From Candidatus Kuenenia stuttgartensis (lineage in GTDB: Bacteria > Planctomycetota > Brocadiia > Brocadiales > Brocadiaceae), in assembly GCF_900232105.1 (NCBI RefSeq), contig NZ_LT934425.1:1980001-2012000 (forward strand): a stretch of 32,000 nucleotides of DNA. The letters run 5' to 3'. Every line of letters begins with the position of its first letter. Within the stretch, counting starts at the first letter, position 1. Positions 13,012 to 32,000 of this stretch are shown here, in pieces. The notes beneath the pieces were generated by a model that made no database searches, was not told where the DNA came from, and saw only the letters and a program-made list of their open reading frames with translations. Both the position numbers and the translations under genes were made by a program.

Positions 13012-13140
13012 ATGTCAAACAAAAAAGGGGGAGGTTGCCAGATGAAGCGAAAGATATAATGAGGCTTAAGCATTATTATATCCATCCATAAAGAACGATC
13101 ATACGGTGATTGGATCAAACGATATATTCAATACCACTGA
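13012..13140 (+). pseudogene. Degraded N-terminal remnant of a tyrosine recombinase (integron-integrase/XerD-like SAM-like domain)
   Basis: AGGAG RBS plus ATG13012 (MSNKKG). After frameshifts it reads RLPDEAKDIMRLKHYYIHP* and then KERSYGDWIKRYIQYH*. Compare the conserved integrase N-terminus ...IRLKHYSxRTExxYxxWIKRFIxFH. Only about 45 codons remain. Confidence 0.5.
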
Positions 13141-13283
13141 ATGACCGGTAGAGTGACCGAAACAGCTTTCGCTTGCATTTTTACAATCGCAAAGTAAAAT
13201 GAAACATCCATGGCCTAAAAGTCACAGAGTGAAGTGAAAATAAATAATCCACAGATTACTTGGCGCGGCCTTTGGCCGCAACC

Positions 13284-25455: not shown

Positions 25456-25502
25456 GGCAGCCCTGAGCTGTTCCGGAATTCGGGGGACACCATACGTAGT
25501 TA

Positions 25503-25531
25503 TTGACTCAATGTTGAAAAACAGCTAAGAT
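25503..25531 (+). promoter_or_regulatory. Candidate promoter of the type I R-M operon
   Basis: TTGACT (25503-25508), a 17-nt spacer and TAAGAT (25526-25531), about 130 nt upstream of the hsdM start. Confidence 0.3.
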
Positions 25532-25661
25532 TCCCCGTGGTCAGGATTGCTCGTGTGGCAGTCCCAGTCTCATGCTATGACGTCAGAATTCTGCTATACC
25601 ATAATTATGCAGTTTAATGCCGGACGGCAAGTGAAAATATTTTTACCCGGGAGAAACCGCC

Positions 25662-27116
25662 TTGTTTGAACAAACCTTCAAGAATATAGACGACATCCTC
25701 CACAAAGACGCCGGTTGCAGCAGCGAACTGGACTATGTGGAGCAGACCTCGTGGATTCTTTTCCTGAAATATCTGGATGATTTTGAGAAGGATAAGAAAA
25801 CCGCGGCAGAGCTTGCCGGTAAATACTATGAAGGTATTATTGACAAACAATACAAATGGGAAGTCTGGGCAGTGCCCAAAGGCAAAGACGGCAAGATCGA
25901 TCATCATAAGGCGCTTACCGGCGATGACCTGAAAGACTTTGTTGACCACAAGCTGTTCCCTTACCTGAAAAAATTCAAAACGTCAGCCGAAAGCGCCGAC
26001 ACCATCGAATACAAGGTCGGCGAGATTTTCAGCGAGCTGAAAAACAAGATTCAGAGCGGCTATAACCTGCGCGAAGTCATTAATCGTATCGATGAACTCC
26101 GCTTTCGCTCCCACGCTGAGAAGCATGAGATGTCGCACCTGTACGAAAACAAAATCAAGAATATGGGCAACGCCGGCAGAAACGGCGGCGAATACTACAC
26201 GCCCCGTCCGCTCATAAAAACCATCGTGAAGGTGGTTGCACCCACCATCGGCAACAAGGTGTATGACGGCGCGGTCGCTTCGGCGGGCTTCCTGGCGGAG
26301 GCTTTTGAATATCTGAAAACCAGCAAGAACCTAACCACCAAAGATGCGGAGACACTTCAGAAAAGAACCTTCTACGGAAAGGAAAAGAAGTCGCTCGCCT
26401 ACATCATCGGCACGATGAACATGATTCTGCACGGCATCGAAGCGCCCAACATCGTGCATACCAACACGCTGACGGAAAACATGGCCGATATCCAGGAAAA
26501 AGACCGTTACGACGTCATCCTTGCCAATCCCCCGTTTGGCGGTAAGGAACGCACCGAGGTGCAGCAGAACTTCCCTATCAAAACCGGCGAAACGGCTTTT
26601 CTGTTCCTTCAGCATTTCATCAAAATCCTGAAAGCGGGCGGAAAAGCGGGTGTGGTGATTAAGAATACCTTTCTTTCCAACACTGATAATGCGTCCGTAT
26701 CTTTGCGCAAACTGTTATTGGAAAGTTGTAATCTGCATACGGTGCTGGATCTGCCCGGCGGCACCTTTACCGGTGCGGGCGTCAAAACAGTGGTGCTGTT
26801 TTTTGAAAAAGGCGTACCAACTCAAAACGTCTGGTTTTATCAGCTCAATCTGGACAGAAAACTCGGCAAGACCAACCCGTTGAACGAAAACGATCTGGCG
26901 GAGTTTGTAGAATTACAAAAGACCAAGGCCAATTCGGAAAACTCATGGTCGGTGAATGTGGCCGATGTAGATAAAACCACATTCGGCCTGTCGGTGAAGA
27001 ATCCGCATAAAAAAGATGAACCCGCGCTACGTGAACCGGGAATAATTTTGGACGAGATGAAGGCGCTGGATGAAGAGAGTGAAATGATTTTCAAAAATAT
27101 TTTAAGGATTTTATGA
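25662..27116 (+). CDS. hsdM: Type I restriction-modification system, DNA methyltransferase subunit M
   Basis: 484 aa. The TTG start has a GGGAG RBS 9 nt upstream. HsdM_N block FEQTFKNIDDILHKDAGCSSELDYVEQTSWILFLKYLDDFE, then GEYYTPRPLIKTIV, and catalytic motif IV ILANPPFGG. Motif I reads YDGAVASAGFL (see findings). Confidence 0.95.
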   Translation: MFEQTFKNIDDILHKDAGCSSELDYVEQTSWILFLKYLDDFEKDKKTAAELAGKYYEGIIDKQYKWEVWAVPKGKDGKIDHHKALTGDDLKDFVDHKLFPYLKKFKTSAESADTIEYKVGEIFSELKNKIQSGYNLREVINRIDELRFRSHAEKHEMSHLYENKIKNMGNAGRNGGEYYTPRPLIKTIVKVVAPTIGNKVYDGAVASAGFLAEAFEYLKTSKNLTTKDAETLQKRTFYGKEKKSLAYIIGTMNMILHGIEAPNIVHTNTLTENMADIQEKDRYDVILANPPFGGKERTEVQQNFPIKTGETAFLFLQHFIKILKAGGKAGVVIKNTFLSNTDNASVSLRKLLLESCNLHTVLDLPGGTFTGAGVKTVVLFFEKGVPTQNVWFYQLNLDRKLGKTNPLNENDLAEFVELQKTKANSENSWSVNVADVDKTTFGLSVKNPHKKDEPALREPGIILDEMKALDEESEMIFKNILRIL

Positions 27117-28153
27117 GAGCTATTCTAAAATATTCAAAAAGGCAGATTGATAAAGCTGGTGGTGTTTTGTCAGGCGTGCCTGATCAAAAGATGAACAAGG
27201 ATCAAGCTATAGAAATTCTAGAAAACTTTCGATCATTACATATCCACCCTCTTATTGTATTTAGAGTGTCTTTGCAAAGAAAGTCTGAAATTATTTCTGG
27301 TGATGTACTAATTTCACAACGATTAAAAAGAGCACCATCAATTGTCAATAAATTAAAAATCCAGAAAAAGATGTCTTTATCGCAGATGCAGGATGTGGGT
27401 GGTTTGCGTATCGTACTGAATAATCTTGACGAAGTATATAAGCTTAAAGATCTAATACGTGCTGGCGAGACACAAATCGCCTTCAAATCTATTCTTTTAA
27501 AAGAAATAGATTATATTAATAACCCTAAAGAAAGTGGATACAGAAGCATTCATTTGATTTATAAATATAATAAAAATGCTCCTAATGCGAGTCAGTGTCG
27601 AATTGAAATACAGATTAGAACAAAAATACATCACGCATGGGCGACGGCAGTTGAAGTTATAGGCACGTACCTCAGGCAACCATTAAAACAAAGTTTTGGG
27701 GATAAAGAACTATTAGATTTATTTAAAGAAATAAGTAAAGTATTTATTTTATTGGAAAACAAAAAAATGGATATTTCTTTATTCAAAAATACAGTAAATA
27801 GAATAGATGAATTAAAATTGCGCGACAAATTACAAGGATTTTCAATGGTAACAAGGATTTCAGATCAGAACGATGAAAATAAAAAAGGTAAATATTTTCT
27901 TATATCCTTGAATTTTAAGAATAAGACATTGACTGTAAAAAGATTCACTGCCTCAAAGTTAGATCAAGCAAATAGTGAATATTCTGAATTAGAAAAAAAA
28001 TACTTGAATGATAATAATACGGAAGTTGTTCTTGTATCAGTAGATGATATTAATAATCTAAGAAAATTGTATCCTAATTATTTCTTGGACACACAAGAAT
28101 TTGTAAAGTTCCTAGACATAGTGAACAAGGAAATTGAAAAATATGAAAACTAA
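27113..28153 (+). CDS. RelA/SpoT-domain (alarmone-synthetase fold) protein with uncharacterised C-terminal domain; candidate toxSAS/CapRel-like effector
   Basis: 346 aa. All synthetase-fold blocks are present: RLKRAPSIVNK (RxKx3Sx3K), DVGGLRIV, ESGYRSIHLIY and IEIQIRTKIHHAWATAVE. There is no HD hydrolase domain. ATGA overlap with hsdM and an 11-nt overlap with hsdS. The gene is strongly AT-rich. Confidence 0.85.
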   Translation: MRAILKYSKRQIDKAGGVLSGVPDQKMNKDQAIEILENFRSLHIHPLIVFRVSLQRKSEIISGDVLISQRLKRAPSIVNKLKIQKKMSLSQMQDVGGLRIVLNNLDEVYKLKDLIRAGETQIAFKSILLKEIDYINNPKESGYRSIHLIYKYNKNAPNASQCRIEIQIRTKIHHAWATAVEVIGTYLRQPLKQSFGDKELLDLFKEISKVFILLENKKMDISLFKNTVNRIDELKLRDKLQGFSMVTRISDQNDENKKGKYFLISLNFKNKTLTVKRFTASKLDQANSEYSELEKKYLNDNNTEVVLVSVDDINNLRKLYPNYFLDTQEFVKFLDIVNKEIEKYEN

Positions 28154-29303
28154 CTGGCAAATAAAAAAACTCGGCGAGGTTTGTGAAATCAAACCACCAA
28201 AAAAAGAAGCAAGAGACCGATTGAATGATGATGACATTGTCTCGTTTGTGCCTATGGAAGATTTGGGAATATTGACAAAGAATTTTATTGCAACAAAGGA
28301 AAGACCGCTGAAAGAAGTATCTGGAAGCTATACGTATTTTTCCGATAATGATGTGCTTCTCGCAAAAATTACGCCTTGTTTCGAAAATGGCAAAATTGGA
28401 ATTGCTCGCAATTTAAAGAATGGTATTGGTTTCGGCTCAAGTGAATATATTATTTTTCGATCACGTGGCGAAGTAATACCTGATTACTTGTACTACTATT
28501 TAGCTCGTGACCAGTTCAGGCAAGACGGCAAAAAAGTGATGACTGGCGCAGTTGGCCATAAACGAGTGCCGAAAGACTTTGTTGAAAACCAAAAAATACC
28601 TTATCCCAATTCCCTCCCCGAACAACAGCGTATCGTTGCCATTCTGGAGGAGGCTTTTGCCGCCATCGCCACAGCAAAAGAAAAAACCGAAAAGAATCTG
28701 CAAAACGCCCGCGAGCTTTTTGCGTCGTATCTGCAGAGTGTCTTTGCCAATCCGGGGGACGGGTGGGAAGAGAAGACATTGGGGGAATGCTTTAAATTAA
28801 AAAGTGGCGATAATATAACAAGCAAAATGATGATTGAGAATGGAAAGTATCCTGTTTATGGTGGTAATGGAATCGCGGGGATGTATAATAAATTTAATCT
28901 ATCAGGGAGCAATGTAATTGTAGGTAGAGTCGGAGCTTTATGCGGAAATGTAAGGCATATAGAAGAGGCTATTTGGCTCACTGATAATGGATTCAAAATA
29001 ACAGATTGTAAATATGATTTTGATAATGCGTTTCTTGCATATTTATTGAACTTAAAGAATCTACGAAATTATGCAAGGCAAGCAGCACAACCAGTCATTT
29101 CAAATTCATCATTAGAAGAGGTGTTACTACAATTTCCAAAATCATTAAAAGACCAAAAATCCATCGTCACCAAACTCGATGCGCTTTCCGCCGAAACCAA
29201 AAAGCTCGAGGCCATTTACCGGCAAAAGCTCGCAGACCTGGACGAATTGAAAAAATCGGTATTGCAAAAGGCGTTCACAGGACAATTGACAATGGAAAAT
29301 TGA
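28143..29303 (+). CDS. hsdS: Type I restriction-modification system, specificity subunit S
   Basis: ATG28143 is preferred over TTG28134. Two target-recognition domains (WQIKKLGEVCEI... and WEEKTLGECFKLKSG...) are separated by the conserved helices LPEQQRIVAILEEAFAAIATAKEKTEKNLQNARELF and LKDQKSIVTKLDALSAETKKLEAIYRQKLADLDELKKSVLQKAF. Confidence 0.9.
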   Translation: MKTNWQIKKLGEVCEIKPPKKEARDRLNDDDIVSFVPMEDLGILTKNFIATKERPLKEVSGSYTYFSDNDVLLAKITPCFENGKIGIARNLKNGIGFGSSEYIIFRSRGEVIPDYLYYYLARDQFRQDGKKVMTGAVGHKRVPKDFVENQKIPYPNSLPEQQRIVAILEEAFAAIATAKEKTEKNLQNARELFASYLQSVFANPGDGWEEKTLGECFKLKSGDNITSKMMIENGKYPVYGGNGIAGMYNKFNLSGSNVIVGRVGALCGNVRHIEEAIWLTDNGFKITDCKYDFDNAFLAYLLNLKNLRNYARQAAQPVISNSSLEEVLLQFPKSLKDQKSIVTKLDALSAETKKLEAIYRQKLADLDELKKSVLQKAFTGQLTMEN

Positions 29304-29313
29304 GAATGGGTGA

Positions 29314-29499
29314 TTGAAAACGAGCAATGTGGTCAAAGAGAAGTCGTTTTACGTTCGCGGTGCGGGTAGTGGACCGGCTACCGAACGTTGTCAGCGCCTG
29401 AATACCAGCGAAGCGGAGTCGGCCATCAACGACAACAAGGAACTCTTGAAACTGTTAACCCGTATCATCAACTCAACTAAACAAGGAATGGACACATGA
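29314..29499 (+). CDS. Doubtful small ORF (61 aa, TTG start) in the hsdS-fic spacer
   Basis: It is an open frame only, with no motif and no RBS. It is chained by an ATGA overlap to a further 35-codon ORF (29496-29603) that ends 2 nt before the fic ATG. Confidence 0.2.
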   Translation: MKTSNVVKEKSFYVRGAGSGPATERCQRLNTSEAESAINDNKELLKLLTRIINSTKQGMDT

Positions 29500-29571
29500 C
29501 CGCTGTCAATTACCAATTGTCCACTGAATACCGTGAAATTGGCTGTTTTTTCTTAGATTTTCACGATTATG

Positions 29572-29599
29572 TTGACAAAAGAGTGAAAGATTTTATACT
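29572..29599 (+). promoter_or_regulatory. Candidate internal promoter for fic (possibly giving a leaderless transcript)
   Basis: TTGACA (29572-29577), a 16-nt spacer and TATACT (29594-29599). The fic ATG at 29606 sits about 7 nt downstream and has no Shine-Dalgarno sequence. Confidence 0.3.
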
Positions 29600-29605
29600 G
29601 TAGCT

Positions 29606-30487
29606 ATGGCAAAAATCTTACATGTTTTTAATTCAATCAATCGCTTGAGAGAGCGGTATTATGTTGCGGCGGTCGGTAAACAATCGCTTTTGGATTTATT
29701 GAGCGAAGCGGAGGTTGCCGAGCAGGTGTATAACTCTAACGCCATCGAGAACAGCACCCTCACCCTTGAAGAAACTGAAAAAATCCTTTTGCAGATACAT
29801 TTAGACAGATACATCACGGAAAGAGAAATCTTTGAAGCAAAAAATCTCGCACGGGTAGTTTCTTACATCAATATCAAGGCCAAAGAACAAGAGCTTACCC
29901 TTGAGGTTATGCTATCGCTTCACAAGATGCTTATAGCGAATATCAGGGATGATATCGCCGGCAGATTTCGCAAGGACGGTGAGTGGGTCAGGGTTGCAAA
30001 CCACATAGCGCCAGACCCAAAAGAAGTGGCAGGAAGATTGGAAAAAATGCTTGCCGGATATAACGCCGCCAGCCATGAAAATATTATAAAACGTATTGCG
30101 CGGCTGCATCTTACCTTTGAACACACCCACCCGTTTGTTGATGGCAATGGCCGTATCGGAAGGGTAATAAATAACTATTTGCTTATACGGGAAGGCTTTG
30201 TGCCGATGAATATTAAATTCATTGACAGGAAGATGTATTACGAGGCGTTTAAGGAGTTTGACGAAAAAGGCACTGCCAAAATCATGGAGGAAATAGTCGG
30301 CAAAGCGCTTACGAATAGTTATCACAAGAGACTTGCGTATCTGGAAGGAGCACACATTATGACGCTTGCTGAATATGCAAAAAAGCATAAAGTATCGCAC
30401 TCTAATTTGATAAATAAAGCACATCGCCAAACTATAGAAGCCTTTTTTGAAAAAGGCGTTTGGAAGATTGGAGATTACAAACCATGA
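29606..30487 (+). CDS. Fic family protein (AMPylase-type active site, class II N-terminal inhibitory motif)
   Basis: 293 aa. Canonical Fic motif HPFVDGNGRIGR (HxFx[D/E]GNGRxxR). SNAIEN near the N-terminus fits the [S/T]xxxE[G/N] inhibitory helix. The C-terminal ~60 aa is HTH-like. Confidence 0.9.
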   Translation: MAKILHVFNSINRLRERYYVAAVGKQSLLDLLSEAEVAEQVYNSNAIENSTLTLEETEKILLQIHLDRYITEREIFEAKNLARVVSYINIKAKEQELTLEVMLSLHKMLIANIRDDIAGRFRKDGEWVRVANHIAPDPKEVAGRLEKMLAGYNAASHENIIKRIARLHLTFEHTHPFVDGNGRIGRVINNYLLIREGFVPMNIKFIDRKMYYEAFKEFDEKGTAKIMEEIVGKALTNSYHKRLAYLEGAHIMTLAEYAKKHKVSHSNLINKAHRQTIEAFFEKGVWKIGDYKP

Positions 30488-31920
30488 ACGAAGCGGAACA
30501 CCCCTATTCAAAGATAAAAGCCATTATCAAGCAGGGCAAAGGGTTGACCGTTGAGTTCAAGGAGTGTAATACCGCCCTCAACAAAGATATTTACGAGACG
30601 GTGTGCGCCTTCCTGAACCGCTTCGGCGGCGAGCTTCTGCTTGGCGTTAGAGATGACGGCGTGATAACCGGTATAGTCCCTGAGTGCCTCCACCAGATCA
30701 AAAATGATTTTACGACAGCCGTCAATAATCCACAGAAAATCAGCCCGTCGTTTTATCTCTCAATGGATGAGGCCGTAATCGACGGGAAAACCATTCTCTC
30801 CATTTACATCCCCGAAAGCTCCCAGGTTCACCGCTGTAACGGGAAAATATACGACCGGAATGAAGACGGTGATTTCAATATCACGGACAACCACAACCTT
30901 GTATCCGCACTTTACCTGCGAAAGCAGATCGGCTACTCAGAAAACACTATTTACCCATATACTGAACTTGCCGATCTGCGGCCTGATGTTATAGCAAGAG
31001 TTCGAAAAATGGCTTTGCTCCAGTCGGAAAACCACCCATGGGGCGCTATGAGTGACCTTGACCTTTTGAGAAGCGTTCAGTTGTATAGGAAGGATTTTCA
31101 AACCGGGAAAGACGGTTTTACGCTTGCCGCAATACTGCTCTTTGGAAAAGACGAGACCATTCTATCGGTAGTGCCGCATTTCAGAATCGATGCCATTCTG
31201 AGACGGGACAACATCGACCGTTATGACGACCGTGACGATATCCGCACGAATCTCATCGAAAGTTATGACCGCCTGCTACGATTTGGAGAGAAACATCTGA
31301 ACGATCCGTTTTATCTGGAAAATGGCCAGAGGATAAGCCTGCGCGGCCATATTTTACGGGAAGTAATCAGCAATATCCTTATCCACCGCGAGTATGCCAA
31401 TGCGTTTCCAGCGAAGTTCGTCATTGATAGAGAAAAACTTTTCACGGAGAACAGCAATAAACCTCACGGGTATGGCATGATTGATCCGTCACATTTTACG
31501 CCCTATCCAAAAAATCCTTCTATTGCGCGATTATTCAGGGAAATTGGACGGGCGGATGAGCTTGGGTCTGGTGTTAGGAATCTGTTTAAGTATTGCAAGG
31601 CCTATTGCGGCCACGATCCGCAACTCATAGAACAGGATATTTTCAAATTCATCCTGCCGCTTACCGGGGAAGCTACCCCTCAAGCTACCCCCCAAGCTAC
31701 AGGGGAAGACGAACGGACAAAAAAAATAATGAATTACTGTCTTAACCCAAGAACAAGAGAGGAAATACAGGAGTTTACCGGTTACAAAGACAGAAAACAT
31801 TTTCGTTTAGAAATCTTACAGCCGCTTCTTGATAAGGGCTTGCTGCACCCGACTATACCCGATAAACTGACAAGCCCGAAACAGAAGTATTACTCTGCAA
31901 AGAAACGAGAGAACCTATGA
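30484..31920 (+). CDS. AlbA_2 (Schlafen-type) domain / HATPase_c_4 (RecG-C-terminal-like) / winged-helix protein
   Basis: ATG30484 is preferred (ATGA overlap with the fic stop). AlbA_2 pattern LTVEFKECNTALNKDIYETVCAFLNRFGGELLLGVRDDGVITGI. Later LREVISNILIHREYANAFPAKFVI...ELGSGVRNLFKYC is typical of the 'putative ATP-dependent DNA helicase RecG-like transcriptional regulator' family. The C-terminus is wHTH-like. ATGA overlap with hsdR. Confidence 0.8.
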   Translation: MNEAEHPYSKIKAIIKQGKGLTVEFKECNTALNKDIYETVCAFLNRFGGELLLGVRDDGVITGIVPECLHQIKNDFTTAVNNPQKISPSFYLSMDEAVIDGKTILSIYIPESSQVHRCNGKIYDRNEDGDFNITDNHNLVSALYLRKQIGYSENTIYPYTELADLRPDVIARVRKMALLQSENHPWGAMSDLDLLRSVQLYRKDFQTGKDGFTLAAILLFGKDETILSVVPHFRIDAILRRDNIDRYDDRDDIRTNLIESYDRLLRFGEKHLNDPFYLENGQRISLRGHILREVISNILIHREYANAFPAKFVIDREKLFTENSNKPHGYGMIDPSHFTPYPKNPSIARLFREIGRADELGSGVRNLFKYCKAYCGHDPQLIEQDIFKFILPLTGEATPQATPQATGEDERTKKIMNYCLNPRTREEIQEFTGYKDRKHFRLEILQPLLDKGLLHPTIPDKLTSPKQKYYSAKKRENL

Positions 31921-32000
31921 ACGAAGCGGAAACCAGAGCGGAACTGATTGACCCGAAGCTCAAAGAAAGCGGCCGGGGCGTGGTGGACGGGTCAAAAATA
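31917..32000 (+). CDS. hsdR: Type I restriction enzyme, R subunit (5' end only; runs off the window)
   Basis: MNEAETRAELIDPKLKESGRGVVDGSKI is the characteristic HsdR N-terminal (HSDR_N) opening. Confidence 0.85.
   Translation, partial: MNEAETRAELIDPKLKESGRGVVDGSKI

Follow-up and report, generated by a model that had tools for sequence, protein, structure and literature searches.

A type I restriction-modification (R-M) operon lies at the 3' end of the window analysed here, a stretch of 32,000 nucleotides (nt) from the anammox planctomycete Candidatus Kuenenia stuttgartiensis (NZ_LT934425.1, positions 1,980,001 to 2,012,000), and three genes that are not R-M genes are embedded in it: a CapRel-family gene with a RelA/SpoT domain, fic, and a gene (albA2) for a Schlafen-type protein with an AlbA_2 domain. 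An earlier interpretation of the same DNA, the sequence-only reading, had proposed that these cargo genes and the restriction enzyme form one composite 'restriction plus guard' system. Our results point instead to a type I R-M locus, now partly decayed, into whose gene junctions defence cassettes, each mobile on its own, have probably docked.

The open reading frame (ORF) map of that reading was reproduced, with hsdM, the RelA/SpoT gene, hsdS, a gap of 302 nt (29304-29605), fic, the AlbA_2 gene and the start of hsdR in this order, and all ORFs and junctions are present in the sequence at the coordinates it gave. Its domain calls were confirmed by Pfam, NCBIfam and PADLOC searches of the proteins, and the PADLOC, CapRel and Schlafen family matches bear out that the cargo consists of defence-type genes truly embedded in a type I hsd operon. 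The features, all on the plus strand, are:

25503-25605, +: candidate promoters of the hsd operon, two weak sigma-70-like sites (25503-25531 and 25577-25605; 9/12 matches each)
25662-27116, +: hsdM, 484 amino acids (aa), type I R-M methyltransferase subunit (Pfam, PADLOC)
27113-28153, +: CapRel-family fused toxin-antitoxin gene, 346 aa, with a predicted N-terminal toxSYNTH pyrophosphokinase and C-terminal auto-inhibitory sensor
28143-29303, +: hsdS, 386 aa, two target-recognition domains
29276-29531, +: filler between hsdS and the fic module, containing an orphan 61-aa ORF (29314-29499)
29532-29605, +: fic regulatory region, with an inverted repeat and a promoter-like site, kept in 8/8 fic loci
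29606-30487, +: gene for a predicted class II Fic protein, 293 aa (Pfam, PADLOC, motifs)
30484-30498, +: left copy of the 15-bp direct repeat ATGAACGAAGCGGAA, duplicated hsdR codons 1-5 (MNEAE), now the start of the Schlafen gene
30484-31920, +: gene for a Schlafen-GHKL ATPase-winged helix-turn-helix protein ('Schlatpase-HTH', COG2865), 478 aa (Pfam, fold match)
31917-32000 (runs off the window), +: 5' end of hsdR, of which the first 15 nt (31917-31931) are the right copy of the repeat

Read directly from the sequence, ATGA overlaps are found at 27113, 30484 and 31917, and an 11-nt overlap, ATGAAAACTAA, at 28143-28153. Such 4-base ATGA overlaps are commonplace in operons and alone are no proof of functional integration. 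Thus, the claim that the cargo is wired into R-M translation stands insofar as the overlaps are real, but it does not extend to the hsdS-fic junction, as fic is uncoupled from hsdS and has a promoter-like site of its own, and the overlaps do not by themselves demonstrate integration. The start codon of hsdM is TTG, with a Shine-Dalgarno-like sequence (GGGAGA) on its 5' side, and hsdS has an alternative TTG start at 28134. The two promoter candidates upstream of hsdM are tentative, the total number of sites in the promoter scan being near the shuffle expectation. By exact-sequence look-up, the AlbA_2 gene is KsCSTR_03710 and fic is KsCSTR_03720.

The three embedded genes

The first cargo protein has a Pfam RelA_SpoT domain (4e-21) and matches the PADLOC model PDC-S33 over its full length (1.5e-104; residues 4-338 against profile positions 5-342 of 349). 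It is collinear with CapRelSJ46 (PDB 7ZTB/9ERV), with an E value of 2.6e-38 from the protein sequence alone and of 2.3e-64 from a profile of 27 sequences, the alignment to 7ZTB covering residues 4-335 (of 346) against 12-367. Residues R70, R99, Y143, Y320 and Y323 correspond to R79, R116, Y155, Y352 and Y355 of CapRelSJ46; the toxSYNTH motifs RxKxxxSxxxK, DxxGxR, the G-loop tyrosine and ExQxRT are kept, and the YXXY motif is YPNY (residues 320-323), the pattern Y[PS]xYF being present in 104/107 full-length homologues. Judged by this collinearity and these motifs, the protein is a single-gene CapRel-type fused toxin-antitoxin of the characterised kind, with all catalytic and auto-inhibition residues kept, and, on the same grounds, the PADLOC candidate PDC-S33 can be identified as a fused toxin-antitoxin like CapRel. 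In CapRelSJ46, the ATP site is blocked by the YXXY motif of a C-terminal pseudo-zinc-finger domain, and binding of a phage capsid protein lifts this block (Zhang et al. 2022, PMC9712102); that protein works as a single gene, triggered by direct binding of the phage protein (PMC9712102).

Homologues of the CapRel gene were scanned in 80 loci, one genome per species. In a close clade of 6 loci (67-75% identity, all candidate phyla radiation (CPR)/Patescibacteria), the order hsdM-capRel-hsdS was found in 5, and in the sixth (L009) a 74%-identical CapRel gene lies between dnaK and a glyoxalase gene. The embedded loci of this clade share the ATGA and 11-nt overlaps of Kuenenia with hsdM and hsdS, and about 40 nt across the capRel/hsdS junction (the 3' end of capRel and the start of hsdS) are nearly identical between Kuenenia and the CPR loci; one embedded locus (L011) belongs to a type I family that is only 32% identical in HsdM. 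The other 74 homologues (35-42% identity) stand alone, beside housekeeping or transposase genes, two or three of them with hsd genes nearby (directly beside hsdS in L041). An hsd neighbour of CapRel-like genes was found upstream in 5/78 and downstream in 4/78 cases, every one of them from the close clade; because the local hidden Markov models (HMMs) for hsd genes recognise no type I family other than that of the window, the embedded fractions here and below are lower bounds, for which Pfam neighbour scans served as a check. Thus, embedding is a trait of one clade and not of the whole CapRel family. The GC content of capRel is about 31% in every host (30% in Kuenenia), and that of hsdM ranges from 32% to 50% (L007, L008 and L010-L012 compared), which suggests that the cassette was transferred repeatedly and recently or that its composition is strongly constrained. 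Conservation of the sensor in the embedded clade, expected for an R-M-related trigger, was considered and rejected: no region of the protein is less conserved than the sensor segment (mean pairwise identity 0.57 vs. 0.73 for toxSYNTH).

The second cargo protein contains a Pfam Fic domain (9e-22) and matches the PADLOC model PDC-S04 (6.7e-34) and, more weakly, SoFic (3e-26). Its active-site motif, HPFVDGNGRIGR, starts at residue 175, and the canonical HxFx(D/E)GN(G/K)RxxR motif is present in 120/120 homologues; the inhibitory motif SNAIEN (residue 44) aligns with TVAIEG of FICD, and (S/T)xxxE(G/N) is present in 118/120. FICD (7e-20) and CdFic are the best PDB matches. By contrast with the equivalog cut-off of 550 bits, the NCBIfam model ProtAdlyltaseSoFic gave 38.9 bits, with a match only to residues 161-210. 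The C-terminal ~60 aa resemble a helix-turn-helix (HTH) by eye only. On this motif evidence, the protein is a class II, self-inhibited Fic protein of the PDC-S04-like kind. Homologues that are 86-97% identical were found in metagenome-assembled genomes (MAGs) of Planctomycetota, Nitrospirota, Desulfobacterota, Omnitrophota and Pseudomonadota, a degree of cross-phylum conservation that is unusually high for a horizontally spread accessory gene.

Seven other contexts of fic were examined. The order hsdS-fic-hsdR, with a 4-nt overlap onto hsdR, was found in two (L172 and L177); of the rest, one lies near a type IIG-like enzyme, one among transposase genes, and three are solo genes among housekeeping genes (L168, L175 and L176). 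About 75 nt on the 5' side of fic are conserved in 8/8 loci from different phyla, embedded and solo alike (the window, L167, L168, L172, L173, L175, L176 and L177). This region holds an inverted repeat, CGTGAAA (29532-29538) and TTTCACG (29559-29565), a third copy, GTGAAAG (29583-29589), and, according to the promoter scan, a promoter-like site TTGACA-16-TATACT (29572-29599; 11/12 matches) that ends 7 nt before the ATG. With a strong promoter-like site directly upstream of it, fic is therefore not translationally coupled to hsdS. The conserved upstream element suggests that fic is an autonomous mobile module with its own putative promoter and operator, probably autoregulated and possibly leaderless. 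A structured RNA in the 302-nt spacer was rejected, as there is no Rfam match and the conserved arms are invariant, without covariation; a DNA operator is therefore likelier than an RNA structure.

L172 does not have the filler that precedes this element (29276-29531), and none of the fetched loci contains a homologue of it. The ORF within it, orf61 (29314-29499), was considered as a Fic antitoxin or small partner and rejected as an orphan: it has no Pfam match, and the fetched loci yielded no homologue. A different insert, a 187-aa ORF with a weak match to IS200-like Y1 transposases, occupies this position in L177. Carriage of the fic module by phages was rejected, as a search of viral contigs did not recover its promoter/operator pattern.

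In the third cargo protein, Pfam identifies SLFN_AlbA_2 (2e-18) and a Fic-like_C winged helix (3.6e-09); HATPase_c_4 falls just under its Pfam cut-off (3e-05; 24.3 vs. 26 bits) and is backed by a fold match to 3LMM and by the annotations of homologues. The AlphaFold model (mean predicted local distance difference test score 72) matches the full-length structural-genomics protein 3LMM (E = 3e-16) and also the N-domains of SLFN13, SLFN12, SLFN5 and SLFN11. An AlbA_2 Schlafen domain, a GHKL-type ATPase and, at the C-terminus, an HTH make up the protein in this order, the architecture known as the 'Schlatpase' supradomain with an added HTH. Its catalytic Ex4(E/D)xK motif is not preserved, the sequence being G-K19-G-L-T-V-E24-F-K26: the position of K19 is occupied by E in 107/107 homologues that include the region and by K in all Kuenenia variants. 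In RorSlfn5, the joint mutation of E15, which corresponds to K19 of Kuenenia, and D20 is inactivating, according to the Schlafen literature cited below. By this analogy, the Kuenenia protein is probably catalytically impaired.

A census of 80 metagenomic loci with homologues of the Schlafen gene (55-87% identity) showed hsdM as the downstream neighbour in 17/67 and an HsdR-like helicase in 13/67; the upstream neighbour was hsdS in 17/66. With family-specific HMMs, an adjoining hsd gene was found in about 44/80 loci, and many of the junctions are 4-nt overlaps. The family is among the most frequent of those embedded in type I R-M loci. Two further candidate associations were rejected. Homologues of 556-687 aa, one of them annotated as 'Fic family protein', carry extra Fic-like_C winged helices and no Fic domain, and hence are not the Fic-Schlafen ('Rosetta stone') fusions that were sought; a conserved fic-albA2 cassette is likewise not apparent, as Fic occurs nearby in 3/80 Schlafen loci and there belongs to another subfamily, with Fic_N.

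Assembly of the mosaic and decay of hsdR

Locus L172, from a Pseudomonadota MAG, has the order hsdM-hsdS-fic-hsdR, with an HsdM that is 89% identical in aa sequence, and contains neither the CapRel nor the Schlafen gene. When the nucleotide sequences of the window and L172 are compared, a common order and 80-89% identity extend over hsdM, the fic module, hsdR and those parts of hsdS that are conserved, and window positions 27080-28602 (the 3' tip of hsdM, capRel and the first recognition domain of hsdS) are replaced in L172. Alignment with L172 and L177 shows that the Schlafen gene was inserted precisely, as 1,433 bp after nt 15 (codon 5) of hsdR; the copies of the 15-bp direct repeat, at 30484-30498 and 31917-31931, are spaced by the same 1,433 bp, and in L177 (Brocadiaceae) the fic/hsdR junction is uninterrupted. 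As a consequence of this duplication of the hsdR start, the Schlafen protein opens with the MNEAE of hsdR. Thus, from the comparison with L172 and L177, three junctions of the operon behave as cassette slots. The full trio of cargo genes was not seen outside Kuenenia in the sampled loci, and these alignments indicate that it is a lineage-specific mosaic that arose from separate insertions.

Among the R-M genes proper, HsdM shows Pfam N6_Mtase (5e-63) and HsdM_N (6e-09) domains, a PADLOC MTase_I match (7.6e-158) and an intact NPPF motif. Its S-adenosylmethionine-binding motif I is YDGAVASAGFL (window 26272-26280, residues ~204-206), with A206 in place of the G found in 7/7 aligned homologues, a change that may weaken the methyltransferase activity. 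HsdS has two Pfam Methylase_S stretches and a full-length PADLOC Specificity_I match (6.5e-109), hence two target-recognition domains. Both subunits have the properties of type I R-M proteins, and from their sequences HsdM and HsdS may still act as a methyltransferase; an intact HsdR was not found.

The window holds just 84 nt of hsdR, and the rest was read from L002 and L003, longer contigs of the same organism that are identical to the window. The gene is broken into ORFs of 87 and 667 aa by a 1-nt deletion (GGGG to GGG; window-equivalent ~32139-32150), one G being missing so that AAAGGGTGG stands in place of the in-frame AAAGGGGTGG, and the reading frame is thereby shifted within the PD-(D/E)xK nuclease motif, after D...ExK and ahead of QxxxY. 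This split is identical in 6/6 contigs shown. When repaired in silico, HsdR aligns with intact HsdRs of 766-807 aa only to residue 657; the last ~150 codons, which correspond to the EcoEI_R_C domain present in the HsdR of L172 and L008, are missing, and the truncated ORF continues into sequence antisense to argC. A programmed frameshift was rejected, given that GGC AAA GGG TGG contains no slippery heptamer and that the gene is also truncated at its 3' end, which favours mutation. Thus, hsdR is a doubly damaged pseudogene, and restriction by this system has therefore very probably been lost. Compared pairwise with the nearest relative, albA2 has a ratio of nonsynonymous to synonymous substitution rates (dN/dS) of 0.29, against ~0.1 in the case of hsdM, fic and hsdR and 0.05 in that of capRel.

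Two peculiarities of hsdR were noted. In the Kuenenia HsdR, the helicase is followed, ahead of the truncation point, by three Cys-rich units in tandem (CPxCG..PC[TI]C; L002 ~13100-13270), a region whose length differs from that in L172. In L177 (3046-4914; a Brocadiaceae MAG) and in a metagenomic relative, L087 (8652-9938), a GIY-YIG nuclease domain lies inside the ResIII helicase region of hsdR; this may be an insertion of the homing-endonuclease type.

The locus is kept with few single-nucleotide polymorphisms (SNPs) across many Kuenenia assemblies. It is flanked upstream by His- and Asp-tRNA synthetases, ABC transporters, M16 peptidases and an EamA transporter, and downstream by argC, lon and groEL; a search for island borders around the locus found neither a tRNA gene nor a terminal repeat. 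A stretch of 73 nt on the 5' side of hsdM (25478-25550) is 85% identical to L177 4983-5056, which lies downstream of hsdR in that locus, and could be an island-border or regulatory element. About 6 kb 3' of the hsd locus, past lon, hsp20 and groEL, there is a HicA/HicB toxin-antitoxin pair (L002 19922-20517).

Probably independent cassettes and the alternative readings

Taken together, these findings indicate an unexceptional defence island, partly in decay and assembled from modules that are independent of one another, rather than a new integrated guard system. If the cargo proteins behave like their characterised relatives, CapRel would be auto-inhibited, its C-terminal domain plugging the ATP site with the YPNY motif, and the binding of a phage protein would free it to pyrophosphorylate tRNA 3' ends and so abort the infection, with no need for a restriction enzyme. 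Fic would be held off by its own inhibitory glutamate and is probably autoregulated at the inverted repeat. The Schlafen protein would, as in active relatives, be an ATP-controlled tRNA nuclease, probably impaired in the Kuenenia copy. Embedding would provide the cassettes with co-transfer and shared expression; physical monitoring of the R-M complex is not implied.

Several observations weigh against this reading. The embedding of the Schlafen gene by hsd genes in about half of the 80 loci is tighter than would be expected of a purely opportunistic passenger and is compatible with a functional link. In CPR bacteria as in Kuenenia, capRel overlaps hsdM and hsdS in exactly the same way, even next to another HsdM family, and such conservation could reflect selection for coupled expression. 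The genes for CapRel, Fic and HsdM are under strong purifying selection (dN/dS about 0.05-0.13), so that the locus is not simply dead, and the inactivation by K19 is drawn solely from analogy with the E15A,D20A double mutant of RorSlfn5.

PrrC, of the EcoprrI system, is a tRNA-targeting abortive-infection anticodon nuclease that is encoded among type I R-M genes and held latent by the enzyme. The sequence-only reading assigned a comparable role to the cargo: the three proteins would monitor or back up the type I enzyme, being kept latent by the R-M complex until a phage anti-restriction factor attacks it. We consider this unlikely. The embedded position and overlapping junctions are real, the CapRel clade keeps its coupling to hsdM and hsdS, and the neighbourhood census that was proposed along with that reading did reveal enrichment in hsd loci for the Schlafen gene (17/67 hsdM, 13/67 hsdR-like, 17/66 hsdS), close CapRel homologues (5/6) and Fic (2/7). 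Schlafen-ATPase-HTH genes lie in hsd loci in about half of the cases, links to R-M or other nucleases have been reported for >50% of the prokaryotic Schlafens associated with defence, and the failure of two Schlafen-HisKinase fusions, tested alone, to protect would fit the need for a partner (bioRxiv 10.64898/2026.05.29.728809; PMC13056530; PMC13462974). However, none of the three cargo proteins matched PrrC in PADLOC; CapRel is triggered by direct binding of phage proteins, for which a single gene suffices, and its variable sensor fits a changing phage target rather than a conserved R-M partner; Fic occurs solo elsewhere, with its own promoter-like site; and the trio was assembled by separate insertions, two of the three cargo genes being absent from L172. 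In this genome, moreover, hsdR is a pseudogene, although CapRel and Fic are intact. The enzyme to be guarded is broken and one effector has lost a catalytic residue; therefore, a working 'restriction plus guard' system is unlikely in Kuenenia.

A narrower version of coupling, to which we likewise assign a low probability, is that the embedded CapRel clade and the Schlafen-GHKL-HTH family are tRNA-targeting back-up effectors coupled to type I enzymes, which fire when the complex is inhibited or stalled, or after cutting. If so, they would form a widespread second layer, analogous to PrrC and built from unrelated folds, of which the Kuenenia copy has decayed, hsdR and the Schlafen active site having been lost together; this would bear on what activates the many R-M-linked Schlafen-ATPase proteins. 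Recent work on prokaryotic Schlafens likewise raises a possible link of the Schlafen-ATPase proteins to type I enzymes.

It is also improbable, in our estimate, that the AlbA_2/HATPase_c_4/winged-helix protein is a DNA-binding regulator of the hsd operon, comparable to the controller proteins of type II systems or to RptR, that times the expression of hsdR, with the cargo acting as regulatory accessories. Such a function would suit the C-terminal winged helix (Fic-like_C, 3.6e-09), the assignment of COG2865 to category K (transcription) by eggNOG, the position of the gene directly 5' of hsdR or hsdM, with translational coupling, in many loci, and the tolerance of K19 in Kuenenia with the remainder of the protein kept; dedicated regulators of type I islands, such as RptR, do exist. 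On the other hand, the catalytic glutamate is invariant in 107/107 homologues, which points to nuclease activity as the selected function, related Schlafen-GHKL modules cleave tRNA in SLFN-pAgo, related Schlafen nuclease domains are found in Cash and RorSlfn5, and no operator-like repeats were found adjoining the gene. A wholly non-functional relic, in which the genes left after the loss of hsdR are decaying passengers, appears similarly improbable: the double lesion of hsdR in 6/6 contigs shown, K19 of the Schlafen protein, A206 of HsdM, the raised dN/dS of albA2 (0.29) and the orphan filler DNA are all signs of decay, but the ORFs of hsdM, capRel, hsdS, fic and albA2 are intact, capRel, hsdM and fic have low dN/dS, all functional motifs of CapRel and Fic are kept, and many Kuenenia assemblies retain the locus with few SNPs.

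Acquisition of independent cassettes at the junctions of a now partly decayed operon thus accounts best for the observations. The locus mostly confirms the published principle that type I R-M operons gather other defence genes. To this, it adds a scar at base-pair resolution, where a cassette was spliced at a start codon and borrows codons 1-5 of hsdR together with its translation-initiation region; the likely identity of PDC-S33 as CapRel-like, with one clade locked between hsdM and hsdS in CPR bacteria and an anammox planctomycete; and a Fic module that is conserved to an unusual degree and brings an operator-like element of its own. As regards the organism, the results suggest that Kuenenia lost this restriction activity and retained an abortive-infection gene.

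Comparison with known systems

The novelty implied by the sequence-only reading is not supported, since embedding has been published, PDC-S33, PDC-S04 and FAM_00002 are already catalogued, and the Schlafen family is well described. In Payne et al. 2024, the embedding of defence genes in type I R-M systems ('guilt-by-embedding') is the principle of discovery; the PADLOC PDC models, including PDC-S33 and PDC-S04, derive from genes that lie within type I R-M, BREX or DISARM systems, the tables of BREX/DISARM/R-M-embedded families list the AlbA_2/HATPase_c_4 proteins as FAM_00002, 96.7% of embedded genes are co-oriented with the host system, and PrrC is labelled as almost exclusively type I-embedded. 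The Kuenenia cargo matches PDC-S33, PDC-S04 and FAM_00002 and is co-oriented with its host system. It differs in that systems containing pseudogenes were excluded from that study, whereas the Kuenenia hsdR is a pseudogene, and in that the combination of three cassettes is lineage-specific; PDC-S33 is not equated with CapRel in the available text of that paper.

With CapRelSJ46 (PMC9712102), the Kuenenia protein shares collinear full-length homology, the ATP-coordinating arginines, YXXY and a sensor that is the most variable part. CapRelSJ46 is prophage-borne, whereas the Kuenenia gene, of modest identity, lies inside an hsd operon and overlaps hsdM and hsdS; it comes from an anammox planctomycete, and its closest relatives (67-78% identity) are mostly from CPR/Patescibacteria. 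The class II Fic proteins FICD/HYPE and CdFic have the same combination of HPFxDGNGRxxR with an N-terminal inhibitory (S/T)xxxE(G/N) helix; compared with FICD, CdFic and SoFic, the Kuenenia protein lacks Fic_N, scores far below the SoFic cut-off and has a dedicated operator-like upstream element.

Schlatpase plus HTH proteins make up a large share of prokaryotic Schlafens and are reported to be tightly tied to R-M, BREX and type I CRISPR (bioRxiv 10.64898/2026.05.29.728809; PMC13056530; PMC13462974). The third cargo protein resembles these pSlfn-HisKinase-HTH/Schlatpase proteins in architecture, R-M association and a fold like that of the SLFN13/12/5/11 N-domains and 3LMM, and differs from them in that the first catalytic Glu is Lys in Kuenenia. 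As for PrrC/EcoprrI, the characterised relatives of CapRel and of the Schlafen protein also target tRNA and the genes lie between hsd genes, but there is no sequence kinship and the cargo families also occur outside hsd loci.

TgvAB of Vibrio cholerae VPI-2 and DarTG2/RptR of enteropathogenic Escherichia coli represent other effector families, and R-M is active there; in both, a defence module lies between hsdS and hsdR, as in Kuenenia, and acts independently of the R-M genes. TgvAB alone conferred protection, and in the DarTG2/RptR work the hsdS-hsdR interval is described as a likely recombination hotspot, which fits the cassette-slot behaviour of the Kuenenia locus.

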